Source of the DNA: a virus
Taxonomy: Duplodnaviria; Caudoviricetes
Virus record (IMG/VR): IMGVR_UViG_3300032307_000764
Coordinates: 160,001-224,000 of that record
Length of the DNA stretch: 64,000 nt
Strand: one strand, 5' to 3'
Part shown: positions 91-33,785 of the stretch, in pieces
Layout of the letters: every line of letters starts with the position of its first letter
Position numbering within the stretch: position 1 is the first letter of the stretch
Program-made: the position numbers and the translations under genes
Notes under the pieces: generated by a model
What the model was told of the DNA's origin: nothing
Seen by the model: only the letters and a program-made list of their open reading frames with translations
Database searches by the model: none

Positions 91-118
91 TTCGTCCTTT
101 ATTTACTCTATATATCAA

Positions 119-1030
119 TGCCCCGATACCCCGAGGCGAACACCTATAAACTCGCCCCGATATCCCAAAGATTTCGCCCCGTTTCTTGAAAAATATCCAA
201 TTCGCCCCGCATACCACACCAAACAAACAACTAAGCGCGGTTATAGAAATCTCCACCTAAAACTCCCGATTTTTCCACTAATCAATCCCGAAAAATCTAC
301 CCTAAAATTGGGGGGACAAAACCAAGAAAAATCCCCAAAAAAGGCCTCGCTCTTTAATACTCCTAACTATATAGTAAAGCACATCAACATATAGTATAGA
401 CACATACATAGTACACACATCACTATAGTATAAGAGAACACACATGTAATACCCATCAATATCCAAGAATACATCAAAACATATAAAAAACTAAGGAACA
501 CATATAAAACCCCTATATAGATACCTACACATATACACATCCCTATACTACAGACAACACACATCCCTACTATATAGAAGAACACTATACTATAGAGACA
601 AGGGCAAGCTATTATACCATCCTCCTAACCCATCTGAACCCATCCTAAATAAGCCCCAGAAAATAGTGGGGAAAAATGGAAAAAAATGGAGACTTGTGGA
701 GATCCCTGGTAACTGTAGAAAATACCACAAAACTGCACAAGGTTAAACCCACTTTCTACGTGTGTCCCCGAGAGGGCCCTCCCCGGGACCCCTTGCGTGC
801 CTACGCGGGCGATTTCTGGGATTATCTTAGAGATCTTTGGGGAATGTCCGAAGGAATTTTACGGAACTCCGAGATGTCTCGGGAATTCCCCGGTAGTCTG
901 GGATTGGTCTGGGATTGATCTGGGAGTTTCTTGGATTTTCTTGGTTTGGACCTGTTGGCTGAGGTGCCCCCGCTGGGATTATCTTGGAGACTTCCCGAAT
1001 AGATTTTCTTAGATAGACTTGGATCCTTTT
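119..1030. repeat. Left non-coding repeat block (island boundary)
   Basis: TCGCCCCG x3 (152,174,202), inverted CGAGGCGAA (132), CCCTAAAATTGGGGGG (300), CA/TA-rich tract 361-600 with CTATATAG x3, CTGGGA at 898/909/920, CTGGGATTATCTT at 816 and 973; only spurious low-complexity ORFs. Confidence 0.7.
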
Positions 1031-1189
1031 GGAAGCCCCGAAAAGATTATAAAAAGTTAAGAAAAGATTTTTATATTCAGGAAAGATTTCTTATATTAAC
1101 CTTATATAAAGGATATAAAAGATTTCTTAAATGCTATAGTTATTTCTAGAAATCATTTTTTATTAAGACATAGAGTTTCTACATTTGCA

Positions 1190-1579
1190 ATGTTAAATTT
1201 AAAAACAATTACGAAAGAGGATATGATTACATCTAACAACGGGTCCGCTTGGACTAAGTCTGACCGTAAGACTTTAAAGACAATGGTTAAAGAAGGAAAG
1301 GCTATTAAGGATATCGCTGCTGAGCTTGGACGCACCCCGGCTGCTGTGATTTATCAGAAGAGTCAGATGGGATTAACTAAGGTGACCAAGTCAACAAAGG
1401 TACCTAAGGTTAAGAATAAGAACGGGAAGTTGGTTATCCCAGCAGCTAAGACTAAGGATACAGTTCCCACAGTAACAACACGAGACAAAGCTAAGGAGAT
1501 GACTAGCGCTGCCCGTCAGATAGCGAGAGCTAATGGTAAGCGTATCACGATGGCTATGTTCTTTGTAGAGGATTTGTAA
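1190..1579 (+). CDS. Myb/SANT-like (GcrA-like) HTH DNA-binding protein
   Basis: WTKSDRKTLKTMVKEGKAIKDIAAELGRTPAAV motif; start may be ATG 1223. Confidence 0.65.
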   Translation: MLNLKTITKEDMITSNNGSAWTKSDRKTLKTMVKEGKAIKDIAAELGRTPAAVIYQKSQMGLTKVTKSTKVPKVKNKNGKLVIPAAKTKDTVPTVTTRDKAKEMTSAARQIARANGKRITMAMFFVEDL

Positions 1580-1599
1580 ACAATTAAAATCTAAATAGA

Positions 1600-2250
1600 A
1601 TGCCAGCACAAATTAAAAGAGCGGTTATGTCTGCCGCAATCAAAGACTATCTCAAGAACAATAAGACCTTGAGAGAGGTTGCTCAGTCACATGGAATGAA
1701 CATGGAGACTTTGCGTAAAGCATTAGGTAGTCGAGTTCGTCCTAGAGGTACACGTTACCTTGCTGATGGATCAGTGAAGACTCCAGGTGTTAAGAATGGT
1801 CGTAAGATCCGTACATCTAAGGCATCTGAGGCAACCCCACGTAGTAACAAACGTTGGACGGCAACTGAAGACGAGATGCTAAGAGATGCAGTGTTAACAG
1901 GTATGACTGTGGGAGAGACCGTAGATCTACTTGGACGTACAGCAGTATCGATCTACTGTCGTAAGTGTTATCTTTTGGACAATGGATACATTCCAGATCC
2001 AGAGACTAGATTCGCTTTACCTAAAGGGATCAAAAGAAATCGTAAGGTAGAAAATGCTACCATTGAAAGAATCGTTGAGATCGGCGAGTCAAGAGAGGAA
2101 GAAGAAAAAGTTCCTTCGGCTCCAGTGACTCAAACAACAACTATTAACTCTATCGAGCTTGAGGATCTTGCTAAGCTTGTTAAGTCGTATGGAGTTAACA
2201 TCACCGTGTCTGTGACTTCGTCTGGTACTGAAGTTAAGATGCACAGTTAA
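1600..2250 (+). CDS. Two-HTH DNA-binding protein (N-terminal HTH plus Myb-like repeat)
   Basis: KTLREVAQSHGMNMETLRKAL and RWTATEDEMLRDAVLTGMTVGETVDLLGRT. Confidence 0.65.
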   Translation: MPAQIKRAVMSAAIKDYLKNNKTLREVAQSHGMNMETLRKALGSRVRPRGTRYLADGSVKTPGVKNGRKIRTSKASEATPRSNKRWTATEDEMLRDAVLTGMTVGETVDLLGRTAVSIYCRKCYLLDNGYIPDPETRFALPKGIKRNRKVENATIERIVEIGESREEEEKVPSAPVTQTTTINSIELEDLAKLVKSYGVNITVSVTSSGTEVKMHS

Positions 2251-2371
2251 AAATCAGTTCTGCTTCTGATTTTTTGTTAGACGTGAAAGGGCTAGTTCTT
2301 AGGAGCTGGCCCTTTTTTATATAGGGGGCTCCGGCAGGACCCCTTGCGAATGCGCGTATGCGTGAGGGATC

Positions 2372-2785
2372 TTAGTTGATCTGACCGATGTACATGGTTA
2401 CTTTCCAGAATTCTGGATCCATTGTGTGGTTCATATAGATCTCTATTGACTGTAGGCTTAGAGGAAATTCCCCTATTTCATATTGAATTACGTCAAAAGA
2501 GGTTGATCCTTCTGGTACTTCTATTGATGTAGTGACGTAGTCTCCTGTCTCTTCGTCTTCAGTCTCAACGTCGAAGTACATTTCTTTGATCTTAGCGCCA
2601 TCTAATTCAATTCCCCATGACTTATAGGTTAAGTCTAGCGTCCATGTAACGCGTCCTTCTTGTACTGAGCAGTACTTTATCTCTGATGGTTCATCGTATA
2701 GATTGACTTCCACTTGGTTGCGACCAATCTTGTCGGTGAACTCATTTGGATTTTCTTGGAAATTTTCGAATAGTCTTAGCTTCAT
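2372..2785 (-). CDS. Hypothetical protein with N-terminal MKLRLFENFQE tag
   Basis: 137-aa ORF; GATAAATA late-type box upstream (2838-2845, minus); the only minus-strand gene inside the island. Confidence 0.75.
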   Translation of the reverse strand: MKLRLFENFQENPNEFTDKIGRNQVEVNLYDEPSEIKYCSVQEGRVTWTLDLTYKSWGIELDGAKIKEMYFDVETEDEETGDYVTTSIEVPEGSTSFDVIQYEIGEFPLSLQSIEIYMNHTMDPEFWKVTMYIGQIN

Positions 2786-2884
2786 GGCGATTTTTATTGG
2801 AAGGAACCCCCGCAGAGGTATCCGTTTTTTGTTCTTTTATTTATCCTCAAAATTTTTTTATTCTTTTAAGATGGTGTATATTTG

Positions 2885-2978
2885 CGGTGTAAATTAACTA
2901 CTCAGAATTTACGCTCATATATTTAGATTTTAATTGTCAAAAAAAACCAGATTCAACAGAGTCTGGTTTTTTTGTGTG
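2885..2978 (+). ncRNA. Candidate small RNA (promoter to terminator, no ORF)
   Basis: TATATTTG box 2877-2884, hairpin GTAAATT/AATTTAC 2889-2912, terminator 2941-2973, no ATG in between. Confidence 0.35.
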
Positions 2979-3033
2979 CGAAAGTTGACCGAAATGTGTC
3001 CGAAAGTTGTCCGATACATGTCCGATACACATC
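2979..3033 (+). repeat. Five 11-nt tandem repeats
   Basis: CGA at 2979, 2990, 3001, 3012, 3023. Confidence 0.8.
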
Positions 3034-3140
3034 GTGGGGGAACCTCCGAATTTCCCTAGCCCCTAGGGAAAAATCGGAAGCATTTAGTGAATCATTTTTT
3101 TGTTTTAGAAAAAACTATTACATTTGAGAAAACTGAAAAC

Positions 3141-3395
3141 ATGTACGTAGTCATTAGATCAAACCCAGACGGAGATAGCTATTACATTACATCTTCATTA
3201 GATAACGCCCGTGCTTCTTTTGAAAAAGAACGAAAGATTGTTAAGGAGAGTATTATTGATAGTGAAGAGAGTGTTGCTTTGCTGAGTGTTAAAGAAGACG
3301 AAGACTTTAGTCGAGGTGCTTGGGGTACTTGGTACGGGTGTGAGGTCATCGAAGAATTTGGTGTGACTCCTGATGAATCATATTTTCCTTTGTAG
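3141..3395 (+). CDS. Hypothetical early protein
   Basis: ATG 3141 downstream of TACATTTG promoter; the longer track start overlaps the promoter. Confidence 0.7.
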   Translation: MYVVIRSNPDGDSYYITSSLDNARASFEKERKIVKESIIDSEESVALLSVKEDEDFSRGAWGTWYGCEVIEEFGVTPDESYFPL

Positions 3396-3433
3396 AAAAT
3401 TCCATATATTTGTCTTAACTAAATAAAACCATT

Positions 3434-3796
3434 ATGGTAACGAAGGTAAAGAAAGATCAATTGGGGCTTTATGTAATTGCTGGAGGGTACATTACAAGAC
3501 CATTTTGGGGTACCTGTTTTAACGAGGGTGATGAGGTAAAGACCCATCATTTCGGCGGATCGACTCGTGCAGGTGTAACAGTCACCGACAAAAAAGAAAC
3601 CCATAACTTTAAAAGAGATGGTCAATATGAGTACTGGTGCACAACAGGACTCTGTTCAACCAAATACAAGAGGGGCGAATATACTCTGGAAGAAATTGAA
3701 AAGCAAACTGAGTGGTACAGTAAAGATATGATTCACGTTGCGGATCGTTTGACCGAAGCCAATCGCGAATTTTCAAAAACACTTACCCAGTCCTAA
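3434..3796 (+). CDS. Hypothetical early protein
   Basis: 120-aa ORF with its own promoter. Confidence 0.75.
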   Translation: MVTKVKKDQLGLYVIAGGYITRPFWGTCFNEGDEVKTHHFGGSTRAGVTVTDKKETHNFKRDGQYEYWCTTGLCSTKYKRGEYTLEEIEKQTEWYSKDMIHVADRLTEANREFSKTLTQS

Positions 3797-3863
3797 CATA
3801 AAAATCATTTTTTTCTTTGTAGAAAATTCCATATATTTGTATCAACCAATTAAATAAAAGGAG

Positions 3864-4739
3864 ATGCCAAATCACGTAACGAACTTATTGACTATTACCG
3901 CAGCTACTGAAGAGAGAGTAGATGAGATTAAATCTTTGATAAGTGGTAAATTTGACGATGGAGAAACAATGCACATTGATTTCAATAAGATTATCCCTCG
4001 TCCGGATTCATTGAATATCACTAGTGGAAGTACTACTGATAATGGTATTGCCATCTTGCAATATCGTGCAGGTGACGAAACAGCCATCCGAGGAATTATG
4101 CAATATCAATGGGGTAAGGGTTTTGATACTCCGGAGGATTTGATTAACTATATTCTCGAAAAAGGATCTGCTAATTTGGAAGAAGCTCAAAAAGCTTTGG
4201 ATAATGAAAAGCTTTATGGTCATCGGGATTGGTACGGATGGTCTAGTGATAAATGGGGTACAAAATGGAACGCATATTCCCAGGAATTGAATGAGTCCGG
4301 TGTTATCAAATTTGAAACTGCTTGGAGTACACCTGAACCAGTTATCTGTGCTCTTAGCCGAATGTTTCCCGATGCCCAATTCGATTTGAGATATGCAGAT
4401 GAAGATTTCGGTCACAACGTTGGAGAGTACACCTATGTAGATGGTGAGATCGTAGAAGAGTATCAACCAGAGGGTGGTTCCGATGAGGCTTATGAATTGG
4501 CAGCAGACATTACTGGCTATGAAGATTACTTCACCGACCGTATTTATGACATCGAAGCTGAGAGTATCGAAGAGCTTGAGGATTACGAAAAAGCTGCTAT
4601 CAGATATGTTTATCGAAAAGAGATCCTTGATGATTTCCCTAAGGTTGTTCTAAGCTATATGGAACAGTTAGCAGTCGAAGATGAGAATTACGAATTTGCT
4701 GAAAAGATTAAGAATACTGTAGCGGTAAACGAAGAGTAA
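3864..4739 (+). CDS. DUF1281/YubB (Api92-like) ferredoxin-like domain protein
   Basis: MPNHVTN, IDFNKIIPRP, WYGWSSDKWGTKWNA, FETAWSTPEPV motifs. Confidence 0.75.
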   Translation: MPNHVTNLLTITAATEERVDEIKSLISGKFDDGETMHIDFNKIIPRPDSLNITSGSTTDNGIAILQYRAGDETAIRGIMQYQWGKGFDTPEDLINYILEKGSANLEEAQKALDNEKLYGHRDWYGWSSDKWGTKWNAYSQELNESGVIKFETAWSTPEPVICALSRMFPDAQFDLRYADEDFGHNVGEYTYVDGEIVEEYQPEGGSDEAYELAADITGYEDYFTDRIYDIEAESIEELEDYEKAAIRYVYRKEILDDFPKVVLSYMEQLAVEDENYEFAEKIKNTVAVNEE

Positions 4740-4921
4740 AAATTATCACCTCCATATATAGAAAAGGGTCTGGATTATTTTCAGACCTTTTTTGTGTGCG
4801 GAGGTTTTTTCTGCAGCCGCGGATTATTGACTGAGGAACCCCCTCGAGGGTGTTAAAAACTATTTGGACGGAAATTCAGGAATCATTTTTATATATAGAA
4901 AATTCTATTTATATTTGTACT

Positions 4922-5080
4922 ATGAAATCTTTTAAGAAAATTCTGTTTAATTATAGCAAGGCTCGTGAACGTGAGCGTGCTAAGGAAGCGGGTTTTTTCG
5001 ATGGAAGGTTTAAGACAAAAGTTGTCACACCCAAGACCAAGAAGCCACCTAAGCACAAACATAAATTGTTTCAAGAATAA
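4922..5080 (+). CDS. Small basic hypothetical protein
   Basis: ATG 4922 just after TATATTTG; Lys/Arg-rich. Confidence 0.65.
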   Translation: MKSFKKILFNYSKARERERAKEAGFFDGRFKTKVVTPKTKKPPKHKHKLFQE

Positions 5081-5586
5081 TGGCTAAGATTAAAGTAGAT
5101 CAGAATAGGTTGCAGAGCAATCTGAAGAGAGGAGAGATTAAGTTCTCTTATGAGAAGGTTGACGGATCGATTAGAGAAGCTAGGGGTACAACACTTTTAG
5201 ATTTGATACCCGCATCACAGCATCCTAAGGATGGAGAGAAGGCTCACAAAGGTACAGCATTCTTTGATTTGGATAATTTGGCTTGGAGATCAATTTCTGA
5301 AAAGACCGAGTGTGTTGATATAGATTCAGATTCACTAGTTGAAATTTACGGGTCACCTATCATAGAGGAGGAGGAGATTAGCTTTATGTTATTCAAGGAA
5401 GGAACACTAGGTGATGTGTGGTTGAATAAATTGATAGAGGTTATCATGGATGCTACACCTCATCGTGCAACGGAGCTTGGTCACGGAGAGTTTAAAAAGC
5501 TAGTCCGAGTTTGTAGAAGGTACATTGAGGACGAGAGCTATGTTAATAGCCTTGAGGATCGATGGAATAAATTTGTAACCAATTAA
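5080..5586 (+). CDS. WYL_2/DUF2693-like SH3 beta-barrel protein
   Basis: LKRGEIKFSYEKVDGSIREARGT...FFDLDNLAWRS. Confidence 0.7.
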   Translation: MAKIKVDQNRLQSNLKRGEIKFSYEKVDGSIREARGTTLLDLIPASQHPKDGEKAHKGTAFFDLDNLAWRSISEKTECVDIDSDSLVEIYGSPIIEEEEISFMLFKEGTLGDVWLNKLIEVIMDATPHRATELGHGEFKKLVRVCRRYIEDESYVNSLEDRWNKFVTN

Positions 5587-5596
5587 ACTTAAATAT

Positions 5597-6052
5597 ATGC
5601 AAGAAGATTCTAAAATTAGTATGTCCAGAAAAAGACGGATAGTACGATGGAGAAGATTCACCTCGTGGATGTACAGAGGAATGGAGAAGGGATTTTCACG
5701 ACAGGATGAATTATCAGATTCACAGAAAGCTGGAGTCAAGATTTTTGAAAGAGCTTTAACTGTTAAGGATGCTGATTTGTTATTAGCTCCATTGAGCGAT
5801 ACTATCTACATAGAGGTTGATGACATTTTCCTTATTTTGGATGGTAGACAATTAAAGATTATCAATGGAAAATATCAGTACGATATTTACCTTCCAGAAA
5901 AGGTTAATCAGAAGCTTTACTCTTCCTTTAAGAAAGTGTTAGAGAAAAGAAGAAAACAAATGGAGTACAAAATCATCACTAAGACTAACCGTAGTCTAAA
6001 TAACATCCTCGATGATTTAGCAGAAATCAGAGATCGCAAGAAAGAGGAGTAA
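5597..6052 (+). CDS. Hypothetical protein
   Basis: 151-aa ORF with AACCAATTAAAC leader. Confidence 0.75.
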   Translation: MQEDSKISMSRKRRIVRWRRFTSWMYRGMEKGFSRQDELSDSQKAGVKIFERALTVKDADLLLAPLSDTIYIEVDDIFLILDGRQLKIINGKYQYDIYLPEKVNQKLYSSFKKVLEKRRKQMEYKIITKTNRSLNNILDDLAEIRDRKKEE

Positions 6053-6233
6053 GAAACCAAAAACCCAAAGGAGCCTAAGAGAAATCTTAGGCTTTTTTGT
6101 GTGCGGATGTTTTTGTAGCAGCAGCGGATTATTGCCTGAGGAACCCCCGATGAACATCCCGTCAGACGGGATTTACAAATCATTTTTTATTTTGTAGAAA
6201 ATTCTATATATTAGCTAAGTAAACCAATTAGAC

Positions 6234-6668: not shown

Positions 6669-6722
6669 ATCATTTTTTTGTTTGTAGAAAATTCTCTATA
6701 TTAGCTAAGTAAATCAAACGAT

Positions 6723-7016: not shown

Positions 7017-7079
7017 ATCATTTTTTTAATTGAAAAGAATTTTCTATATTAGCTAAGTAAACCAATTAAACAAAAAGAG

Positions 7080-12720: not shown

Positions 12721-14157
12721 ATGTCAAAAGGATTTATAAAGAAAGCTTGGAACTCGGTCTCAGGATGGGAACGATCTCACTTCGGAGGATTCAAAAGAAT
12801 GGTCTATGACTACCCTTACGTTTCGGTAGATCACAAAGCTAACATCGATACCCCGAATGGTTTAGCTAGAAACTTAGGAAGTGTTTTCAATGCAGAGAAG
12901 CTCATCAAGATTTATTTGATGAAAGCTAAAAAGCACGAAGCTGCTATGGCGACTCTTCTTAGAGAGAAGGTAAGTATTACTGAGTCCGTTGATCCTTTTA
13001 CTAGAAGACCGATTAAGACTCAAAGGATGACACTCGATCACGAAGGTGTTTTTGAATATCTTCTTAACCATGAGCCAGAGTTCGCTCCTCTATTTGAAGA
13101 GTATCGTAAAGAAATCTTTTCTAGCTATATCGAGACCGAATTACCTGAGGGGCAAGAAGGAGAAGGCCAGGGCGAAGGTGAAGGCGATGGAGATGGTGAA
13201 GGCCAAGGTGAAGGCCAAGGTGATGCTAAGCCTAAGAATGGAGATGGCGAAGGTGAAGGCGAAGGGCCGACTACGAAAAGCTACGGCGGATGGGGTGCTG
13301 GTAAAAAAAGCTTACAGGAGGTACTTGATGCGATGAAGGAGTTTAAACCTTTCAGTGCATCAAAAATCGGAGAAGAAGTACCTATTAGATGGCTTAGCAA
13401 ACCTAGATATGGTCGATCTGAAGGCTATACTACTGAGCGGGAATTTACCACAGAAGAAAAAATCAATGGTGATCGTCTTGTAAAAATGCTCGATATTAGC
13501 TTTGAACCGAAGAGTGATATTGTGAGAAGCTTAAGAGCGGGAAGATTGGACACATCTAAGATTGCCGAGGTACCTGCAGGAAACACCGCTATCTACCGTC
13601 AGACCCTAGAGGATCAAGACACCAAACCATTTGCGGTCTGTATCTTAGCCGATATGTCAGGAAGTATGGATGGAGCCAAATTACATGCTCAGTATCACGT
13701 TCTCAATTCTCTCTATTACGGTCTTCACCAAATTATTCCGCCTGATGATCTTTACATCTATGCACATACGGGAGATGACGAAGCGGACATCTACACTTTG
13801 TGTTCTCCACACAACCCAGAGTATGAGAAAAACATCGGAATGTATTATGACATCGACACAGAATGTAATTACGACGGAACTGTAATTGAGGAAGTACACA
13901 AGAAGATTCGGAATATAACAGACAACCCTGTAATTATGATTACTCTATCCGATGGTCAACCTTGTGACAGTGAGGAGGCGATGAAGAAAATTCTCGAGAA
14001 GGCTAGGAGAGATCAATTCGTAACAATGGGAGTTGGTATTAAAGCTCCTTACGTTTCGAAACTTTACACCTACCATTGTGTTGTTGAAGAGTTAGATACA
14101 TTCATATCGGACGTATCACAATTAATCAACAAGGTGGTTCGAACGGAATTCAAATAA
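12721..14157 (+). CDS. vWA-domain protein (CobT-like MoxR partner), copy 1
   Basis: MIDAS DMSGSM and LSDGQP; Gly/Glu-rich linker. Confidence 0.85.
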   Translation: MSKGFIKKAWNSVSGWERSHFGGFKRMVYDYPYVSVDHKANIDTPNGLARNLGSVFNAEKLIKIYLMKAKKHEAAMATLLREKVSITESVDPFTRRPIKTQRMTLDHEGVFEYLLNHEPEFAPLFEEYRKEIFSSYIETELPEGQEGEGQGEGEGDGDGEGQGEGQGDAKPKNGDGEGEGEGPTTKSYGGWGAGKKSLQEVLDAMKEFKPFSASKIGEEVPIRWLSKPRYGRSEGYTTEREFTTEEKINGDRLVKMLDISFEPKSDIVRSLRAGRLDTSKIAEVPAGNTAIYRQTLEDQDTKPFAVCILADMSGSMDGAKLHAQYHVLNSLYYGLHQIIPPDDLYIYAHTGDDEADIYTLCSPHNPEYEKNIGMYYDIDTECNYDGTVIEEVHKKIRNITDNPVIMITLSDGQPCDSEEAMKKILEKARRDQFVTMGVGIKAPYVSKLYTYHCVVEELDTFISDVSQLINKVVRTEFK

Positions 14158-14459
14158 AGTAACCATGTAAAGGAAAGGAGACTTCGGTCTCCTTTTTTTG
14201 TGGGCTAAGGTTTCTGAAATCAGCAGCCACATCCAAACGCGGGGGTTCCTCAGTCAACCTCCAGGTAGCGTCGGATAGATTTTTTTAGAAAAAACTCAGG
14301 AATCATTTTTTATATTAAAGAGAAATTTCTATCTTTGCATAGTTCCAAAAGAGGGACAAACACCAAACAAAAAAAATCTAGAAAAATCTCAAAAATCATT
14401 TTTTATATTAAAGAGAATTTTCTACTTTAGCTAAGTAAACCAATTAAATATCTATAATT

Positions 14460-15431
14460 ATGTCAGAGACAACAAAAAAGACAATGTCAGAAGAAGCAAA
14501 AGCAAAAATCGCAGAAGGTGTTCGTAGAGCAGCTCTAGCAAAGAAAGGGATAATCGCGGAGGCTGCGGAATCCATCGAGGGCAGACTCAAAGTTGATCCT
14601 TCAAAGGTTCAAGAGCTTGACGGAATAGTTACCTTAAACGGTTACTTCAAGCTCGAGAAAGGAACATTCGAAGTTATCAAACATAACATCGAGCATGGGG
14701 TCAATACGATGTTGATCGGGGCAACAGGAACTGGTAAGACCGAGGTTATCTCAAATGTCGCTCAGGCATTCAATTTACCTCTTGTCATCTTCGACATGGG
14801 TACGATGACCGATCCTGTAATGGGACTTGTTGGAACTCACGTAATCACAGTCGAGGACGGGGTTACCAAGTCAGAGTTCAAACGCTCTCGCTTCTCTGAA
14901 ATCATCCAACAACCGGGTATCATCCTATTGGACGAAATCTCCCGAGCTGGAGCGATGGCCAACAACTTGCTCTTCCCTTGTTTGGACTTCCGACGTGAGT
15001 TACCTATGGAATACTCATTCCACGATACAGCTCCTGTCAAAATTCACGAACAATGTGTTTTCTTCTCGACTGCCAACATGGGTAGCCAGTACACAGGAAC
15101 GCACAAACTTGACCGTGCATTACTTGACCGCTTCATGCTTATCGAAATGGATCCGATCAAGAAGCAAGATATCATGGACACTCTATCAGCAGAGTTTCCG
15201 AAATTGCCAAAAACAAAAGTTGAAAAACTCGTATCAACATTCTTGAAAATCAACCAAGAACATGACGAGTTCAAAATCAGCTTCAACCTTTCGCTTCGTC
15301 ACCTTAAGACAATTGCGAAATTGGTCTCAAACGGTTTCGAAATCTATGACGGTTACTTCGTCCTTTGTAAAGGACTTGGCGGCAAGGAAGGTCTACAAGG
15401 AATCAAATCGATCTTGGACTCAGCCAAGTAA
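14460..15431 (+). CDS. MoxR/CobS-like AAA+ ATPase
   Basis: Walker A GATGTGKT, Walker B ILLDE, TANMG, LDRALLDRF. Confidence 0.9.
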   Translation: MSETTKKTMSEEAKAKIAEGVRRAALAKKGIIAEAAESIEGRLKVDPSKVQELDGIVTLNGYFKLEKGTFEVIKHNIEHGVNTMLIGATGTGKTEVISNVAQAFNLPLVIFDMGTMTDPVMGLVGTHVITVEDGVTKSEFKRSRFSEIIQQPGIILLDEISRAGAMANNLLFPCLDFRRELPMEYSFHDTAPVKIHEQCVFFSTANMGSQYTGTHKLDRALLDRFMLIEMDPIKKQDIMDTLSAEFPKLPKTKVEKLVSTFLKINQEHDEFKISFNLSLRHLKTIAKLVSNGFEIYDGYFVLCKGLGGKEGLQGIKSILDSAK

Positions 15432-15556
15432 TTCTCCATCCACAAAAAGAACCCTGGAAATTTCTCCAGGGGTTTTTAGTTTTTTCTTGGAATCATTTTT
15501 TTTATTAAATAGAAATTTCTATATTAGCTAAGTAAACCAATTAAACAAACAAACAA

Positions 15557-17068
15557 ATGAAAAAGACTTTCGGTAACGTATGGAGCTCGGTATCAGGGTG
15601 GGAGAGATCACACTTCGGCGGATTCTCTAGGATGCTATGGGACTACCCATATATCAAAATGGATCTTGATGTTCGTATTGAACCTGGACAAGGTATTAGG
15701 GATTCTCACGGAGCTTACAATGCGGAGAAGCTTGTTAAGATGTATCTATTGAAGGTCAAGGAATTAGGATTAGTAGATCACCTCCGTCAAGAGCGCATCG
15801 AAGAAAAATCTTTCTTTGGTGGTATGAAGAAGTATGACTTACTTCGGTTAGATAATGAAGGTGTTTTCCATAATGTCTTATCAGCAGATAAGGAACTTGC
15901 ACCTCTCTTCGAACACTACCGAGCGGATGTACTAGCTAGCTATATCAAGATGGAAGTTCCTGGAGAGGAGGAAGGAAACAGTAAAGGATCAAAAGGTGAA
16001 GAGGACGAAGAGGGAGAAGGAAAAGGCAATGGTGAAGGAGAGGGAGAAGAGGGAGAAGGTAAAGGCAATGGTGAAGGAGAGGGCGAAGACGAAGGTGAAG
16101 GTGAAGGTCAAGGAAATGGCGACGGTGATGGAGAAGGCGAGGGAGAAGGCGACGGTAAAAGTAACACATCATCCTCTGGAAATTCGGAATCAAATTCTGC
16201 AGGAAATGCGATAAGAGAAGCGGTCAAAGCTATGAGCAAGTACGAGCCATACAAAGGAAAGAACCTTAGTAAGTTCGAAGAGAAAGCTAAGTTCGTTTCT
16301 TTGCCTGCCTCTTTGTCGAAATATAAATACGAATTCACTAGCGAGGAGATCAAGAATTCGGAATTGCTTATCAAGATGTTAGATATCGACTTCGAACCTA
16401 AGGACGATATAGTTAAGAGCTTAAGATTAGGTCGACTTGATACATCTAAGATTGCCGAGGTACCTGCAGGAAATTTGTCCGTGTATCAGCAAGTCTTAGA
16501 GGACCAAGACACTCAGCCATTCTCCGTTTGTATCTTAGCCGATATGTCTGGTAGCATGGGAGGTTATAGAGTTCAAGTACAAAAACAGGTTATGAATTCC
16601 TTATACTTGGCGATGACACAAATCTTACCTGCGGACAAGCTTTATATCTACGGACACTCTGGAGAATACTCACCTGAAATCTTCACCTTCTATAGTCCGT
16701 ATGACACAGACTACGAAAAGAATATTATGTCTTATGAGCGTATCGATCTTTGTCAGAATTACGACGGACCTGTAGTAGAGGAAGTTCACAGAAAGATTAG
16801 AGAGACGAACGAGGACAGAATTATCTTTATCACTTTATCCGACGGCGAACCTTGTGGTAACGGATACGGAAGCCATAACGATATCGTTGACTTAAAAAGA
16901 GTCCTTGAAAGATGCCGAAGAGATAGCTTTGTAACAGTAGGTATCGGTATTCAAAGCTACCATGTTAATAACCTTTACACATACAGTCAAGTCGTTGAGG
17001 ACTTATCTGAAATGTCAAGAGACGTAGCGAACATTATCAACAAAGTAGTTAGAGCCGAATTCAAGTAG
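15557..17068 (+). CDS. vWA-domain protein (CobT-like MoxR partner), copy 2
   Basis: DMSGSM, LSDGEP; paralog of 12721 sharing SVSGWERSHFGGF and the C-terminal INKVVRxEFK. Confidence 0.85.
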   Translation: MKKTFGNVWSSVSGWERSHFGGFSRMLWDYPYIKMDLDVRIEPGQGIRDSHGAYNAEKLVKMYLLKVKELGLVDHLRQERIEEKSFFGGMKKYDLLRLDNEGVFHNVLSADKELAPLFEHYRADVLASYIKMEVPGEEEGNSKGSKGEEDEEGEGKGNGEGEGEEGEGKGNGEGEGEDEGEGEGQGNGDGDGEGEGEGDGKSNTSSSGNSESNSAGNAIREAVKAMSKYEPYKGKNLSKFEEKAKFVSLPASLSKYKYEFTSEEIKNSELLIKMLDIDFEPKDDIVKSLRLGRLDTSKIAEVPAGNLSVYQQVLEDQDTQPFSVCILADMSGSMGGYRVQVQKQVMNSLYLAMTQILPADKLYIYGHSGEYSPEIFTFYSPYDTDYEKNIMSYERIDLCQNYDGPVVEEVHRKIRETNEDRIIFITLSDGEPCGNGYGSHNDIVDLKRVLERCRRDSFVTVGIGIQSYHVNNLYTYSQVVEDLSEMSRDVANIINKVVRAEFK

Positions 17069-26619: not shown

Positions 26620-26698
26620 CATGGAAATTCCAAGAATCATTTTTTTCTTTAAGTAGAATTTTCTATATTTGTAATGTTAATCAATTAAACAAAAACAA

Positions 26699-27285: not shown

Positions 27286-27347
27286 GAATCATTTTTTTCT
27301 TTGTAGAAAATTCTATATATTTGGTATAACCAATTAAACAAAAGGAC

Positions 27348-27578: not shown

Positions 27579-27833
27579 AGATATACAAGAATGGAGAAAG
27601 CCTAGAGATAGGTACTTGCTAAAGTGATTAAACCTCGCTTGTATGAAATCCCAAGTTAACTCTTGGGATTTTTTGTGTGCTAAGGTTTTGTGTTAGCACA
27701 TGCTATAAGCACCCGGGGTTCCCCAGGGGAGGGGTTGCGTATACGTGCGTACGTACGAAGGGATTTTCTTGGAATCATTTTTTTCTTTGAAGTAGGATAC
27801 TTATATTTAAGATAACCAATTAAAACAAATAAC

Positions 27834-27989
27834 ATGTACTCTTTAAAATGTGATTACTACACAAAACAATTCTCAACTCTTAATCAACTCCTAGGTGACA
27901 TTGCACTCTCAGGAATGGACCCAAATTATGAGATTACCTTCAATGGTAAAGGAACCGGTGAACTAGCTATTGATCTTATTCAATTTTAA
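27834..27989 (+). CDS. 51-aa hypothetical protein
   Basis: Manual translation; promoter and leader upstream. Confidence 0.65.
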   Translation: MYSLKCDYYTKQFSTLNQLLGDIALSGMDPNYEITFNGKGTGELAIDLIQF

Positions 27990-27992
27990 ACC

Positions 27993-28145
27993 ATGTTCAT
28001 AATACTCTTTATCATCTTATCATTCTTTACCTTGATATCAATAGGAGCAGCTTATGCAATTAAAGAAAGAAAAATGACTATTACAGCAATCATTATATCC
28101 TCAGTCTGGATCCTTTCTTTATATTTAATCTTATATTTGAGGTAA
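27993..28145 (+). CDS. 50-aa two-TM protein
   Basis: Manual translation; two hydrophobic stretches. Confidence 0.55.
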   Translation: MFIILFIILSFFTLISIGAAYAIKERKMTITAIIISSVWILSLYLILYLR

Positions 28146-28407
28146 GCTTTAGTTCATAGAAGCAGTAATAAATTATCACTAAATCCCAAGAGCAATCTTG
28201 GGATTTTTTTTGTGCTGAAGTTTTCTGGTAGCAGCCACAGGAATTCTGGAGGAACCCCCGCTGGAAAACCCCTAAAACCCCTAAAGTCCCTCTCGGAAAA
28301 AAGTTTGAATTATTTCCAAGAAATTCCAAGAATCATTTTTTATATCGAGTAGAAGTTTCTATATTAGCTATGTTAATCAATTAAACAAAACCAAAAAACA
28401 AAACATT

Positions 28408-28722
28408 ATGAAAACTTTAACAGCAGAACAAAAAGCAAAAAAGGCAGCTTATGACAAAGCTTACAGAGCAAAGAAAAAAGCTCAAACTCAAATGGAAGCT
28501 TTCAAAATCCCAAGCGAAGACAAATTCGAAAAAAGCTTTGACTATCCGGTTCGACTTTACAAAAACTTGAAAATGGAGAAAACAAATTCTTACTGTGCAG
28601 CAGCAGGAGCACTCTTAAGCTTTGTTAAAATCAAAAACGAAAACAACCAAATCGTTTTCAGAGTTAAAAGAACTGGTCGCAGAACTTTCTATACAACTTC
28701 AAATGAACTTATCCAAAAATAA
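28408..28722 (+). CDS. Basic protein sharing a C-terminal domain with 8249
   Basis: DKAYRAKKK; FDYPVRLY...FRVKRTGRRTFYT. Confidence 0.75.
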   Translation: MKTLTAEQKAKKAAYDKAYRAKKKAQTQMEAFKIPSEDKFEKSFDYPVRLYKNLKMEKTNSYCAAAGALLSFVKIKNENNQIVFRVKRTGRRTFYTTSNELIQK

Positions 28723-28945
28723 GAGCATCCAAAAAACAAATGAGGAGACTTCGGTCTCCTTTTTTGTGACCTAAGGTTTTGCAAAAGACGTATGCATGTA
28801 AGACGAGGGAACCTCCGAGACTTTAAGCAGCTCTAGCAAAAACTGATACATCTATCAAAAACTGATAATACATAGCTTTACCATAAGCTCCTGAGGAACC
28901 CCAGCCATTTTACTGGAGATCTTACCAGGAGTTTTTGATCCTTTT

Positions 28946-29003
28946 CTATCCTACTTCTACCTCTTTTCTACTCTTCTTCTACAACTCCTCTACTCTTCTT
29001 CTA
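28946..29003 (+). repeat. Six CTA motifs at exact 11-nt phase in a pyrimidine-rich tract
   Basis: CTA at 28946, 28957, 28968, 28979, 28990, 29001. Confidence 0.8.
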
Positions 29004-29100
29004 ATCACCTGAGGAACCCCAGGAACCCTAGCATTTTCTATTTGGGAATCATTTTTTTATTTGTGGAAAATTCTATACATTTATAACAAATAAAACAAAG

Positions 29101-29292
29101 ATGAATAACTACGCTAAACTAGTTTCACCAGACGGAGAAATCGTAGGAGTACTTGAACTTGAGGCAGGAACTTTAAACGAGACCCTCGTTGTTGAAGCAG
29201 CTCTTGAATTGGGTATTAAATTAGAAGCATGCACTGAGGAAGAGTACAACAATTTTGATGGTGATGAAATCAAACCAAGTTGGATGGAATAA
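29101..29292 (+). CDS. Small acidic protein
   Basis: 63 aa with its own promoter. Confidence 0.7.
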   Translation: MNNYAKLVSPDGEIVGVLELEAGTLNETLVVEAALELGIKLEACTEEEYNNFDGDEIKPSWME

Positions 29293-29363
29293 TTTCAAAA
29301 ATCATTTTTTATCTTCAGTAGATTTTTCTATATTAGCTAGGTTAATCAATATAACCACTCAAC

Positions 29364-29540
29364 ATGAAACAGGTACTTAAAGTCTTAGCATTTCCATTCA
29401 TCTTGTTATGGAGCTTATGTCAATCATTGCTAGAAATCCTTGAAGCATTATTCGCAAAGCCATTTGTGTTTCGCATGGGAAAGAACAGCATAGAAATCGG
29501 GATCGTGCCCCTGGTACTAATCATCTGGTTAATCTGCTAG
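29364..29540 (+). CDS. 58-aa hydrophobic protein
   Basis: Manual translation; its promoter is identical to the one at 29553. Confidence 0.55.
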   Translation: MKQVLKVLAFPFILLWSLCQSLLEILEALFAKPFVFRMGKNSIEIGIVPLVLIIWLIC

Positions 29541-29617
29541 AAAATTTACTAAAATCATTTTTTATCTTCAGTAGATTTTTCTATATTAGCTAAGTAATCA
29601 ATTAAACACAAATACAT

Positions 29618-30007
29618 ATGCGAATCTTAATTTTATCAGTGTTACTAATGGTAATTACCAGCTTCACCACAGTAACACTAGCTGCTATCCCTAGCAGCCA
29701 AGGCCTGGTTACCGATACAGTGTTAAAGAAGTATTCATACTTAGACACTTCAAAGGTAATCAACACTGAACAGCTCAAGATTGACCCAAGGTGGGTTCAA
29801 GGGCTATCTAATATTTCAAATTACAAACCCATCCTACATATTGACCCTGGCAGCCAGGACACGGTTTCTAATTATACTTTAGCTCGAATCACAGAACCAA
29901 TATTACACATCGACCCTGGCAATCAGGAATTTGGTTCTCTATACAACTATAATTCATTAGCTATTTTTAAGGAACCTGTACTACACATTGACCCCGGTCG
30001 TGATTAA
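29618..30007 (+). CDS. Secreted protein with three P(I/V)LHIDPG repeats
   Basis: Signal peptide MRILILSVLLMVITSFTTVTLAA; repeats differ at synonymous sites. Confidence 0.75.
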   Translation: MRILILSVLLMVITSFTTVTLAAIPSSQGLVTDTVLKKYSYLDTSKVINTEQLKIDPRWVQGLSNISNYKPILHIDPGSQDTVSNYTLARITEPILHIDPGNQEFGSLYNYNSLAIFKEPVLHIDPGRD

Positions 30008-30202
30008 GAAATAAAAAAAAAGAAAAGACTCTTCGGAGTCTTTTTTTGTGGCCCAAGGGTTTAAGGCAAATAAGGCAAACAAGGAAGTGCTCCTGAGGAA
30101 CCCCCGTACATCTTCCATCAATCATTTTTTTATTTAGAGAAAAATCCATACATTTATACTAGCCAATTAAAAATATTATTACCTTTACCTAAACAAAAAG
30201 AC

Positions 30203-30379
30203 ATGAAAGTAAAAATAGGAGAAAAGATTTACGATTCAGAAAAAGAACCTATTATGGTGATATTATCAGATGCAGACAAAAAAAATATTCACAATATGTT
30301 ACCAACAGCAACAAAATATTGTAGTTTTCCTGATGAAATCCCAACAGAAGATATAAAAGAATTTATGAAGACCACATAA
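30203..30379 (+). CDS. 58-aa hypothetical protein
   Basis: Manual translation MKVKIGEKIYDSEKEPIMVIL... Confidence 0.65.
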   Translation: MKVKIGEKIYDSEKEPIMVILSDADKKNIHNMLPTATKYCSFPDEIPTEDIKEFMKTT

Positions 30380-30388
30380 TCATAATAC

Positions 30389-30488
30389 AGTCAGGTGGTG
30401 TAATTGGTAACACGGGGTTCGAGTCCCCAATCTTCTCGAAGGGAAGATAAAGGCTGGCAAGATACAGGTTCGAGCCCTGTCCTGACTA
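30389..30488 (+). tRNA. Atypical ~100-nt tRNA-like gene (nominal anticodon CGA, Ser-like; no encoded CCA)
   Basis: 7-bp acceptor AGTCAGG/CCTGACT, D-arm GTGT-AATTGGTA-ACAC, T-arm ACAGG-TTCGAGC-CCTGT; GGGG-TTCGAGT-CCCC at the anticodon position plus a 35-nt extra region. Confidence 0.65.
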
Positions 30489-30553
30489 CAAAATCATTTT
30501 TTTAATTGGAAGTAATTCCTTACATTTATACTAACCAATTAAAACAAAACAAA

Positions 30554-30709
30554 ATGAAAACACACAAATTAGTTTACCCACTAGCTTACACTTCACTCTT
30601 CACATTAGTAATAGGAGCAATCCTAATGGTAGGAGGAAATCACATAGGAGATTATATGGTTGCAGGAGGTGCAATCGTAGCAACATTACTCATGCACAAA
30701 TTAGATTGA
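30554..30709 (+). CDS. Small two-TM protein
   Basis: ATG 30554 after promoter and leader. Confidence 0.65.
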   Translation: MKTHKLVYPLAYTSLFTLVIGAILMVGGNHIGDYMVAGGAIVATLLMHKLD

Positions 30710-30853
30710 GTTTGATTGGTTAACACATACAACTCAAATCAGAAAGACCAGCTTCCTCCAGCTGGTCTTTTTTTGTGGACCTTTGACAAATCTTTAAGAA
30801 GACAACTGGAACTTAGCAGGAACCCCCGATATATAAGAGATAACAACAACATT

Positions 30854-31069
30854 ATGAAAGAGTATCTTTTATCAATCAAGAATGGTGAAACCATCAACAC
30901 AATCAAAGCACATACACTAGAAGAAGCAATTCTCTACTTTGCAAAGGTTAAAAACCTATCACAAGATTCATTATTAGACATCTATAGTGTTAATCCTAGA
31001 CCATTCACAATAAACCTTGCTGATTATTGTGAAGCTCATAAAATAGATCCTTACATGCAAACTAAGTGA
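30854..31069 (+). CDS. Hypothetical protein (late-type promoter)
   Basis: ATG 30854 after GATATATA at 30828; the track start 30716 spans a terminator. Confidence 0.65.
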   Translation: MKEYLLSIKNGETINTIKAHTLEEAILYFAKVKNLSQDSLLDIYSVNPRPFTINLADYCEAHKIDPYMQTK

Positions 31070-31266
31070 TAGTAAGTATTCCTTATTCCTAAGGTTTACA
31101 TCCCTATTTTCCAGATAATAGTATACTAGCATAAGTCTGAGGAGGTACCCCATTCTATTTTACCATAGCTTAACATAAGGTTTACCATAGCCTAGCATAA
31201 GCTCCTGAGGAACCTCCCTAAGGATACTAAAAACAAGTAACAGGATATATACAATAAAACACAACC

Positions 31267-31494
31267 ATGGAATTACTAAGATTTGAAGATTACATCAACG
31301 AAAATAACAACATATCTGAACAAGAAGATATGATGATTAAAAATTTTAAAACTGATGTTCAAAGAGTACTTATGCAAGACACAGTAGCTAGACCTAACTT
31401 TGCGGAAGGAACCTTCGGGAGTAGACCAGCATCTTTACCAGAAATGATCTCTTCTCTAGAATCTATTATTGCTGATTATAAATCTAAGATGTAA
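31267..31494 (+). CDS. Tag protein MELLRFEDYINE
   Basis: GATATATA at 31244; N-terminal tag. Confidence 0.7.
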   Translation: MELLRFEDYINENNNISEQEDMMIKNFKTDVQRVLMQDTVARPNFAEGTFGSRPASLPEMISSLESIIADYKSKM

Positions 31495-31705
31495 AGTTAA
31501 CCACATACCTACAAAAAGAGATCTTAGGATCTCTTTTTTTGTGACCATAAGACTTACCATAAGCTCCTGAGGAACCCCAGAAAAGATCAGCATAGCTCCA
31601 GCATTATATCTTACATTAGCTGCATGGGATACTGGATCTGGGCTGATTAGAATCATTTTTTATATTGTGGAATTTTCCATACATTAGCTAAACAAACAAT
31701 TAGCT

Positions 31706-31909
31706 ATGAGTGAAAGTAACTTTGAAAAGAATCTCAAAAAGAAGAACCCTGATATTGACATTAATAGGATGCTGAATATCTTTGATGCGAAGATAGAAGA
31801 GGTACAGGCATCACAGGGACTTGAAGAGATTAGATTACCCTTAGGATGTGATCTCAATAAAGCAATCTTTGCTTCTGTGCTTTCAGAATACTTAAACACA
31901 AAAATATAA
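31706..31909 (+). CDS. Hypothetical protein
   Basis: 67 aa with its own promoter. Confidence 0.65.
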   Translation: MSESNFEKNLKKKNPDIDINRMLNIFDAKIEEVQASQGLEEIRLPLGCDLNKAIFASVLSEYLNTKI

Positions 31910-32005
31910 CATCAATGTGGGTTTTTAATATAACATCAATTGGAGTTTTTTTCATTCTATTTTTAATTCTTTGCCTAATGGCAGGTCTTGCAATTGGCTT
32001 GATCA

Positions 32006-32335
32006 TTGGAGATAGTAGAAACAATCTACCGGGTCATAGAAACCCACCACCTCCTCCAACAAAAAAAAAGGATGAAGTTTAATGAGTTCTGTCATAGAAT
32101 ATGTGATGGTCTATATGATCCACGATTCCCTATGGAAGACCAATGCTCTGGCTATCACCAACTAAGAAACGTAGTACTTAACAAAATCCCTCCACACCCT
32201 TTAGAAATAAAAGACTGGCTGGATGATCCAGAAGCACCACCACCACAAGAAAGATATCTAAGAGCACTACACCCAAAGCTAAGAAAATTCGTTATAGATA
32301 ATTGGGACAAAATAAAAGAACTAGAGGTTGATTGA
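32006..32335 (+). CDS. Hypothetical protein
   Basis: Start uncertain (TTG 32006 or ATG 32072). Confidence 0.6.
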   Translation: MEIVETIYRVIETHHLLQQKKRMKFNEFCHRICDGLYDPRFPMEDQCSGYHQLRNVVLNKIPPHPLEIKDWLDDPEAPPPQERYLRALHPKLRKFVIDNWDKIKELEVD

Positions 32336-32544
32336 TTAACACCACATCCGCTAAAAAAAGAAAGAGACTAACTGTCTCTTTTTTTGTGACCTAATCTTAC
32401 CCAAATGCTTACCAGATAATCTGCTGGGGTTCCCCAGTACATCTACCAGCATTAACTTAGGACCTCATAACATATTCCAAGAATCATTTTTTATATTGTA
32501 GAAAAATCCATACATTTACTCTATAACCAATTAAACAAAACAAA

Positions 32545-32928
32545 ATGATTATCTTCACTTCAAACATTACAAAAGTACAGGTATACCCTAAATACAGACC
32601 AAAAATCTATGAATCATCCTTAGCATATAGAAAGGACTACAAAAAGCGAGTAGGAACCAAATTCTTGTTCTTTCCAGTCTATGAAATAGTACCTCACGCA
32701 GTTATCCATGAAGGAGGATTATTTAATTCAACTGAAGAGTTTGAGTGTGATCTAAAAGACTTCAAAAGTGATTACTACTACTTCGAAGATGGTGTACTAT
32801 ATGAAAACCCACATTGCACCATCTATATGAACGATCGTTCTAGCAAAGAGGTACACTTTGAAACAGTAGACGAGCTAAATGCCTATGTAGAAGAGCTCAA
32901 ATCTAAAGCCCCACATATCATTGTTTAA
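32545..32928 (+). CDS. Hypothetical protein (last island gene)
   Basis: 127 aa with its own promoter. Confidence 0.75.
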   Translation: MIIFTSNITKVQVYPKYRPKIYESSLAYRKDYKKRVGTKFLFFPVYEIVPHAVIHEGGLFNSTEEFECDLKDFKSDYYYFEDGVLYENPHCTIYMNDRSSKEVHFETVDELNAYVEELKSKAPHIIV

Positions 32929-33039
32929 ACCCCCCTTAAAACACACATTATATATGAAGTAACTTATCATCCATATATCACATCTAAAGGCTCTTAAACA
33001 AGCCTAAAACAACACCCAAGGTATCACTAAAATATACCC

Positions 33040-33785
33040 TCCCCGAAGGCCTCCCAAGAAGAGGCCTTTTTTAATGCCCCTAGGAATCCCTACCAGCTAG
33101 GGATAAATCTGAGGGGGTTCCCCCAATTGGGACAACATTTAAAAAGCAAGGATATCAGGGTATACCCCAGTAGCATAGGCAGCATAAATGCTCCGGGGAA
33201 CCCCCATTTAAAACACCTATAAAACACCTTGGAAACACCCCTGGATAGGCCCTTAAAATAGGGGTCCAAAATGCCTAAAAAGGACCCCTAAAATAGGGGG
33301 TAAAAACGGGGGGAGAGACCCCTAAAATAAGGGGGGCTAAAAGGGGTAAAAAGGCCCTTAAAATAGGGGGTAAAACAGGGGGCTAGGACCCTAAAAACGG
33401 GCCTTATATACGTATACTATATAGGGGGGGATAAAAATGTAATTGATCCCTTAGTCGGCCTGTTTCTAAATTTCTACGTGCGGGCCCATACCCCCTTTTT
33501 AGGGATTCGCCTCGAAATCTTGGCTACTATCTTGGATAGATCTTGGCTACCCCCCTAAAGGGTAAATCCTGTAGGTGTTCCCATTTTAGAAATTTGCGTG
33601 CGTATCGGAAAGGGGTGTTTTTAGGGTTCGCCTCGGGCCTTACTATGTTGATCCAGCACTACGCGCGCGAAGAAGGGGGGTAAACCCTCAAAAACCCTTG
33701 GTGTTCAGTTTTGAAAATTTTACGTGCGGGGCGGAACAGGGGTTTCCTAGGGCTCGCCTCGATTACTCTTTGATATATAGAGTAT
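33040..33785. repeat. Right non-coding repeat block (island boundary)
   Basis: ACACC x3 at 11-nt phase (33213, 33224, 33235); CCC(C/T)TAAAATA(A)GGGG x4 (33250-33370); three ~122-125-nt degenerate repeats starting 33468, 33590, 33715, each with CGTGCG and TAGGG..TCGCCTCG. Confidence 0.8.

Follow-up and report, generated by a model that had tools for sequence, protein, structure and literature searches.

Bacteriophage SPO1, which has a Gram-positive host, carries a host-takeover module of ~24 genes within a proven 13-kb terminal redundancy. Terminal repeats of tens of kilobases have been described for the jumbo phages PA5oct, in which 39,080 bp hold 105 genes, many being early and encoded by the same strand, as judged by RNA sequencing (PMC7318152), and XacN1, in which 65,875 bp hold 131 open reading frames (ORFs) (PMC5852040, where the SPO1 redundancy is also summarized). 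In T5, untranslated repeat regions are better conserved than the adjacent ORFs, and an HNH gene splits some of these regions in certain relatives (Davison, 10.1101/866236). The hyperplastic regions of T4-type phages carry promoter-early stem-loop (PeSL) cassettes (Arbiol et al. 2010, PMC2839356). Here we set beside these systems a window of 64,000 nucleotides (nt), comprising positions 160,001 to 224,000 of a 248,191-bp linear IMG/VR virus contig. Judged from its sequence, the window contains an early-gene island of an already known kind that is fenced by two conserved, putatively cis-acting DNA elements. Coordinates below are those of the window unless contig positions are named.

The contig was estimated by CheckV to be 85% complete, and the full genome is therefore probably ~290 kb. 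Its major capsid gene is of the gp23 type (PF07068, E = 1.4e-38) and is related to that of phage MaF61 as well as to those of the Prevotella Lak megaphages, the Tenacibaculum phages PTm1 and PTm5, a Flavobacterium phage, and Chryseobacterium phages. Because these relatives infect Bacteroidota, the host is very probably a member of that phylum. Freshwater metagenomes make up the majority of the sequencing runs that contain the stretch. The phage, an uncultivated jumbo phage from freshwater, has T4-type head genes and is related to the Lak/PTm1/PAU group.

A one-directional array of predicted early genes

The island extends from 1190 to 32928 and comprises 55 ORFs, 54 of which lie on the plus strand; the sole minus-strand ORF called between 1.15 and 32.9 kb is located at 2372-2785. 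A preliminary description of this DNA had pointed to the shared orientation of nearly all genes between 1.1 and 33 kb and had regarded them as a compact, one-directional early-gene island. Both statements hold up, since the co-oriented ORFs are accompanied by 48 instances of the promoter module AATCATTTTTT-N12-24-TAyATTwG. A conserved A-rich leader (containing AACCAATTAAAC) extends from the TAyATTwG box to the ATG, and the promoter and leader together form a module of ~60 nt. The downstream box reads TATATTTG or TACATTTG in ~40% of the modules, an exact match to TAnnTTTG, and in most of the remaining modules it is off by one base (TAnnTTAG). TAnnTTTG is the consensus for the -7 element of the Bacteroidota, as known from Bacteroides and Flavobacterium promoters. 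The preliminary description was therefore right to call the promoters host type, but it went too far in giving nearly every gene a promoter of its own: a predicted module is present within 120 nt upstream of 38 of the 54 plus-strand genes (~70%), and the other 16 genes lie in operons of two to three genes.

Across the contig, 44 of 59 promoter cores fall within contig positions 160-200 kb. Most units of the island are separated by a predicted terminator consisting of a hairpin and a T-run, followed by a conserved downstream box. These elements recur as repeat families, with D1-D11 corresponding to the promoter/leader and D14-D17 plus D20 to the terminator with its downstream box. The first promoter module (AATCATTTTTT ... 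TACATTTG, 1151-1187, plus strand) precedes the first island gene (1190-1579), which adjoins the left boundary block and encodes an HTH/GcrA-like protein with weak Pfam matches. At the other end, a hairpin and T-run that reads as a terminator (GGCCTC ... GAGGCC TTTTTT, 33046-33073, plus strand) follows the last island gene. The array appears to be the main early-gene (host-takeover) region of the phage, placed under host-type Bacteroidota promoters, with an early timing of expression that we infer.

Other predicted products of the island include a DUF1281_C protein, a WYL_2 protein, a MoxR-type AAA+ ATPase, and two VWA/CobT-like proteins. The ATPase gene (14460-15431) is flanked by the genes for the two VWA/CobT-like proteins (478 and 503 amino acids) within 12721-17068, and both of these proteins contain Gly/Glu-rich 12-nt tandem coding repeats. 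No tRNA genes were found in the window, island included. In the last ~5 kb of the island (28000-33000), the GC skew and the coding-strand skew at third codon positions (GC3) are negative (-0.16 to -0.50) despite the plus-strand orientation of the genes. This region is unique in the contig, as all other regions of negative skew carry minus-strand genes. The promoters within it have the variant box TCCATACATTTA.

Boundary blocks and the outward late-type genes

The array is bounded by two gene-free blocks. The left block (119-1150) contains four GC boxes, TCGCCYCG, at 132 on the minus strand and at 152, 174, and 202 on the plus strand, spaced 20-28 nt apart. These are followed by one CCCTAAAATTGGGG site at 300, an A/C-rich zone of TATAG/CACACAT repeats (360-600), a TTTCTACGTG box at 753, a GC-rich knot (764-812), about nine TCTKRG words in helical phase at 10-11 nt (815-1032), and an AT-rich stretch with AAAGATTT repeats (1040-1135) that leads into the first early promoter. 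The right block (32929-33783) carries, beyond the last terminator, four 15-bp palindromes, CCCYTAAAATARGGG, at 33250, 33285, 33319, and 33355 (period 35 nt), an 11-nt phased ATCTTGGCTAC repeat (33517-33550), and three units with a period of ~122-126 nt (33462-33515, 33574-33635, and 33700-33761), each of which ends in TAGGGnTCGCCTCG. The last unit abuts the late-promoter word described below, ending 8 nt before it. Local GC skew switches from negative to positive at both blocks.

The two blocks had been described as related by shared motifs. This holds for short words. All seven sites matching TCGCC[CT]CG in the 248,191-bp contig lie in the blocks, namely the four listed above and those at 33507, 33628, and 33754 on the plus strand. 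Within the whole contig, CCCTAAAAT[TA]GGGG occurs only at 300 and 33286, TTTCTACGTG only at 753 and 33471, and TTGCGTGC only at 793 and 33594, while CCCTAAAATWGGGG is present once in each block and nowhere else. Less specific is CTATATAG, found at 367, 513, 570, and 33417 but also at six sites outside the blocks. Nine 8-mers are found in both blocks and nowhere else in the genome, whereas 1891 random window pairs had 0.09 such words on average and never more than 3; the number of 9-mers common to the blocks is 44, with a background mean of 11-16 (maximum 33-38). The relationship does not extend to long homology: the best local alignment between the blocks scored 32-35 in either orientation, compared with 23.6 +/- 2.8 (maximum 38) for shuffled sequences. 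A module consisting of an ACGTGYG box, a GC box, and phased TCTKGG words (753-840 and 33471-33550) points the same way in the two blocks, and a second module, consisting of a GC box and the late word, is inverted between them. The blocks are specifically related by short words, differ in architecture, and are not copies of each other.

Since the blocks share words that occur in no other part of the genome, they are good candidates for essential cis-acting sites, which might serve as an origin, in packaging or DNA entry, or in switching from early to late expression. To our knowledge, sites of this kind are almost unknown in phages of the Bacteroidota. Neither block matched an Rfam family (the only match, to PreQ1, was below threshold), and single-strand folding of the blocks was no better than that of shuffled sequences (z -1.3 to +0.5), which fits sites that act in double-stranded DNA. 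Structured RNAs or hairpin arrays in the blocks were considered and are unsupported by these results. The phased TCTKRG words next to the AT-rich stretch, the skew switch, and the right-block arrays of 35- and 122-nt period could belong to an iteron-type origin. No initiator was identified, the adjacent HTH protein has only weak Pfam matches, and DnaA boxes (TTATCCACA, one mismatch or fewer) were found in neither block, compared with 76 sites elsewhere in the contig.

Late-type genes point outward from both edges of the island, as the preliminary description had stated, lateness being assigned from gene class. On the left, the gene that starts at 90 on the minus strand (5' part at 1-90; 88 amino acids) runs on to contig position 159824 and leads a 12-gene minus-strand run. 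On the right, the gene at 33784-34140 on the plus strand encodes a 118-amino-acid protein with a weak Lcl_C/DUF1566-like match and leads a long plus-strand run of genes with GATATATA[AG] motifs. Among the 251 non-island genes, the 60-nt stretches preceding the starts were enriched in the k-mers ATATATA (found at 59 genes, 21-fold above expectation) and GATATAT (found at 45 genes). The word GATATATA[AG] is located 0-20 nt upstream of ~50 non-island starts, those of structural genes among them, and is nearly absent from the island. It precedes both edge genes (108, minus strand; 33773, plus strand) and many genes farther out; on the minus strand of the left flank, sites are found at 108, -206, -2278, -4280, and -6657. 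The result is a map of the transcription program of an uncultivated jumbo phage, with ~48 early units and ~50 late genes, one word for each class, and sharp boundaries between them. In at least 14 genes (e.g., at 38287, 39712, 41114, 44581, and 46166), only 3 nt separate the end of GATATATA[AG] from the ATG; this would mean near-leaderless late mRNAs, unless the word is something other than a classical -10 element.

The two edge promoters contain the 15-mer TTGATATATAGAGTA, of which the contig has exactly two copies, at 104-118 (minus strand) and 33770-33784 (plus strand). The left arm, a late-promoter-type word, lies 13 nt ahead of the start codon at 90, and the last base of the right arm is the A of the ATG. 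The preliminary description had drawn attention to this perfect 15-bp inverted repeat. It is indeed perfect and unique, but its special status is not upheld. The generic late word accounts for 9-10 of the 15 bases, and what is specific to the two island edges is the remaining bases and a TCGCCTCG box located 8-13 nt upstream of each arm. In the related metagenomic contig G009 (IMGVR_UViG_3300027734_000044), the outermost 100 nt on the left, with the arm of the repeat and all but one of the four GC boxes, have been replaced, and the inverted repeat is therefore not obligatory. The right arm is kept in one metagenome relative (L113), and in another (L114) a different TATA-rich word stands in its place. 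The inverted repeat is best described, from these comparisons, as mostly the generic late-promoter word combined with a shared GC box. The replaced segment of G009 carries an ORF resembling an HNH endonuclease (containing VNHKDLDKKNNHIDNLEWASHMENSRH; L129:5150-5730), which separates the leftward late operon from the left block.

An inverted repeat that is unique in the genome and brackets the island could also mark an invertible segment, flipping at the 15-bp arms in the manner of the Mu G segment or the terminal segments of phage Matilda; one jumbo phage has been reported to carry terminal segments that are bidirectional and have inverted repeats on either side (10.64898/2026.10.21.760668). 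We consider inversion highly improbable. Every assembly that crosses a junction (at least eight at the right and three at the left) shows the same orientation, no strand-switch joint at the repeat was found in four runs, and no recombinase domain was detected among the 20 flanking proteins scanned. The missing left arm in G009 and the generic nature of most of the repeat also argue against it.

Two further genes among the late-type genes to the right of the island may be mentioned. A pirin/quercetinase-like cupin gene (PF02678, E = 1e-24) is located at 37610-38281. The 540-amino-acid product of 41125-42747 contains SPRY and Laminin_G_3 domains, and its lectin-like domain matches the receptor-binding fold of clostridial neurotoxins (8e-7); it is probably a receptor-binding or fiber protein.

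Conservation of the layout and packaging of the island

The boundary blocks were compared in related genomes, as had been proposed in the preliminary description. Positions 201-1100 of the left block are 82-96% identical to G009 (about 90% overall), compared with ~80% in the adjacent genes. The alignment contains frame-breaking indels of 1 nt and 11 nt, which argue against a coding function of the block. In the metagenomic run X3, the core of the left block (394-766) is 99% identical, whereas the island genes are 95% identical. The right block has a mean column identity of 84% with L113 and L114, and its units can be recognized in the more distant relative G1 (83% capsid identity). By these measures, the blocks, at 84-95% identity in relatives, match or exceed the conservation of the neighboring genes, which places gene-free DNA among the best-conserved parts of a fast-changing region.

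The layout itself recurs, wholly or in part, in at least two related lineages (G009/L118 and G1). The island is colinear with that of G009 at 77-86% nucleotide identity and is also colinear with L118/L122; its gene content differs among this phage, G009, and L118/L122, while the blocks persist. G009 and the contig Ga0114973_10000213 overlap at 97-99% identity and jointly contain the left block, an island of ~27 kb, and the right block, in a lineage ~80% identical to the phage described here. The order in G1 is early-type promoters, then a homologue of the right block, then late genes. Relatives of the 353-amino-acid protein of the right flank and the 355-amino-acid protein of the left flank are nearly absent from five large related contigs, and synteny was therefore traced through the capsid gene and DNA patterns. 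A pattern search for the right-block units matched only G1, and a search with a left-block 20-mer matched only G009. An exact pattern search of IMG/VR for the GC box plus the 15-mer gave no matches, nor did a near-identity megablast of 1-8 kb and 32-40 kb against the phage collection. No block motif was present in the related contigs G002, G003, and G006-G008, a result of little weight since these contigs are only 26-53% complete.

These comparisons bear on whether the blocks do no more than control the transcription of the two outward late operons, as upstream activator sites of a late or middle promoter, and have no part in replication, packaging, or entry. Such a role would suit the arrangement of TCGCCTCG, 8-13 nt, and TTGATATATAGAGTA ahead of both outward genes, the right-block units that end 8 nt before the late word, and the operator-like appearance of the palindromes. 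We nevertheless think it unlikely. G009 has lost the promoter-proximal part of the left block and has the HNH-like ORF in between, yet it keeps the inner 900 nt, so the conserved function of the left block is not that of an outward promoter. The late word that follows the last right-block unit differs in L114. In addition, 0.85-1.0 kb of DNA far exceeds what is needed by the ~50 other late genes, which are served by the short word alone.

Conservation of the blocks around an island of varying content might instead reflect repeated exchange rather than a biochemical function during infection, with the blocks acting as recombination anchors ("linker" sequences) for swapping the early island, or parts of it, between related co-infecting phages. 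Recombination between repeated cassettes is known to reshuffle the early modules of T4-type phages (PMC2839356), and the greater identity of the block core than of the island genes in X3 agrees with this idea. In run X2, however, the block shows no extra conservation (93%, compared with 95%), and the phased repeats, the palindromes with their 35-nt period, and the private GC boxes would be left unexplained. Recombination anchoring as the sole role of the blocks therefore strikes us as quite improbable. As a separate observation, close relatives of positions 1-6000 (88-99% identical) occur in contigs from four metagenomes (X2-X5) belonging to four studies dated 2016-2025. At cassette boundaries, some joints in these relatives omit a single cassette or put other DNA in its place (e.g., 3375 to 3803 and 5071 to 5573), as cassette shuffling would give.

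In the preliminary description, the island was further proposed to be a direct terminal repeat of ~33.5 kb, present in the assembly as one collapsed copy, and the blocks to be sites of terminase recognition and cutting or of an injection stop. Under this model, the packaged DNA would run from the left block to the right block of the next unit, with the early genes entering first and being present twice. We regard this as a possibility to be taken seriously, although we lean away from it. PA5oct, XacN1, T5, and SPO1 offer precedents; the length of 33 kb, which had been called unusual for a terminal repeat, is exceeded by both PA5oct (39 kb) and XacN1 (66 kb). Several features resemble those of T5, namely the conserved, repeat-rich non-coding blocks, the HNH-like insertion in G009, and the clustering of one-way promoter cores, and a private set of motifs at both boundaries would suit a single enzyme acting at both. 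On the other hand, the blocks lack the DnaA boxes found in the injection-stop region of T5. The largely generic make-up of the inverted repeat and the loss of its left arm in G009 also count against the model. Self-comparison of the contig revealed no long internal repeats and no second copy of any part of the island, partial copies included.

Depth was estimated as the k-mer depth of Logan contigs from low-coverage metagenomes with mixed strains. In X2, contig depth was 6.5 in the left flank and outer block (2-347), 3.4 within the block (395-594), and 11.6 in the island (592-5982), and in X3 it rose from 2.3 in the flank to about 5.1 in the island; the depths come from contigs of 185-458 nt. 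The X2 block contig thus lies below the flank, and in X4, where the block had a depth of 18.5 compared with 22-47 in an island that holds two strains, there is no step between block and island at single-strain depth. The approximately twofold rise in X2 and X3 is ambiguous, a hint at best that does not serve as evidence, and the stretches left uncovered in X5 carry no meaning. The junctions do not separate the models: a collapsed repeat leaves no mark in contigs, and the junctions observed therefore fit both modes of packaging alike. Contigs break at varied places within the island, as its repeated cassettes would give.

The start of the contig (contig positions 1-250) lies within a collagen-like Gly-X-Y tandem-repeat gene with 54-nt repeats, and the start of the relative G5 (1-420) likewise falls within such a gene; the assembly breaks there have a technical cause. 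A cluster of GGAACCCC at the start of G5 was considered as a terminus and rejected, as it lies inside the collagen-like coding repeat.

The terminase of the relatives is of the gp17 type (PF03237) and is nearest to the PAU, PTm1, Lak, and T4-type enzymes. For the G1 enzyme, the best matches among cultured phages were PAU (1e-86), PTm1 (1e-74), cyano-T4 phages (~1e-63), and T4-like phages (~1e-48), whereas the RaK2-like phage CMSTMSU matched at only 3e-31 over 62% of the length. The terminase of the relatives therefore appears to be far from the RaK2-like clade, home of the known long-repeat jumbo phages PA5oct and XacN1, and this distance counts against the terminal-repeat model.

We tentatively favor a different reading, while stopping short of calling it probable, in which the island is a single-copy early region and its boundary blocks are protein-binding sites with a role in early/late switching or in starting replication. 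Host RNA polymerase would read the array rightward directly after DNA entry. One or a few DNA-binding proteins would load on both blocks and so mark both ends of the early region, and this loading would serve early/late switching and possibly the initiation of replication. The island would be present once within a genome packaged in the manner of T4, and the 15-bp inverted repeat would amount to one composite late promoter, made of a GC box and the late word, that serves each outward direction.

Several points weigh against the single-copy reading. The function that it assigns to the blocks is our inference. The grouping of nearly all early promoters into a single one-way array, next to long stretches of conserved non-coding DNA rich in repeats, is the layout of the fixed-end phages T5, SPO1, PA5oct, and XacN1, and contig depth is approximately twofold higher in the island than in the left flank in the two runs discussed above. 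No large terminase gene was found in the 248-kb contig, which is 85% complete, although the relatives have one (at 12.4 kb in G5 and 124.9 kb in G1). G5, which is 99% complete and has 69% capsid identity, contains no island, repeated promoter, blocks, or large gaps. Finally, the GenBank records of PTm1 and PAU start in ordinary genes and have no repeat features, and no terminus analysis of these phages was found in the literature; the MA9V-1 paper likewise contains none.

Should the island prove to be a terminal repeat after all, a new phage lineage, one with a T4-type terminase, would join those known to have long repeats of early genes. A Bacteroidota jumbo phage would then carry a host-takeover module that is injected first and in double dose, with one private set of words marking both of its boundaries, and the genome sizes and completeness estimates of such metagenomic phages would need correction.

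Likeness to known early regions

The island resembles the SPO1 module in its dense, short early genes under strong host-type promoters and in being set apart from the rest of the genome. The SPO1 module is shorter and belongs to a phage of a Gram-positive host, and the likeness drawn here is between the gene modules.

With the terminal repeats of PA5oct and XacN1, the island has in common a similar size range and a content of small genes, mostly of unknown function and largely early, spread over tens of kilobases on one strand. The repetition of the ends in those phages was shown by read depth or pulsed-field gel electrophoresis, whereas a repetition of the island described here is hypothetical. 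PA5oct and XacN1 also belong to the RaK2-related terminase clade, which provided the most distant match (3e-31) to the terminase of the relatives, and the XacN1 repeat has tRNA genes, which the island lacks.

The blocks find their closest likeness in the left terminal repeat of T5, the site of its pre-early genes, where non-coding regions of 0.2-1.2 kb that are rich in repeats and palindromes lie beside early genes and are conserved above the level of ORFs. In both cases, two separated regions share inverted elements, and an HNH endonuclease gene is inserted in some relatives. The T5 regions have ordered DnaA boxes, while the blocks have none, and the inverted element shared in T5 is 131 bp long, compared with 15 + 8 bp here. 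T5 itself is a siphovirus with a 10-kb repeat and an experimentally shown two-step DNA transfer.

For the island, the T4-type hyperplastic regions offer many small, non-essential early genes with a repeated cassette of host-type promoter and stem-loop (PMC2839356), the activity of the cassettes here being predicted. The two also agree in T4-type head genes, in a T4-type terminase lineage, and in a content that varies among relatives. They differ in promoter grammar, which is of the Bacteroidota type TAnnTTTG here and of the sigma-70 -35/-10 type there, and in layout, since the cassettes are distributed over several regions in T4-type phages and form a single 32-kb one-directional array in this phage. 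Two conserved non-coding fences of ~1 kb, not described for the hyperplastic regions, enclose that array. The island would thus follow the PeSL-cassette principle of the T4-type hyperplastic regions, gathered into one 32-kb block.

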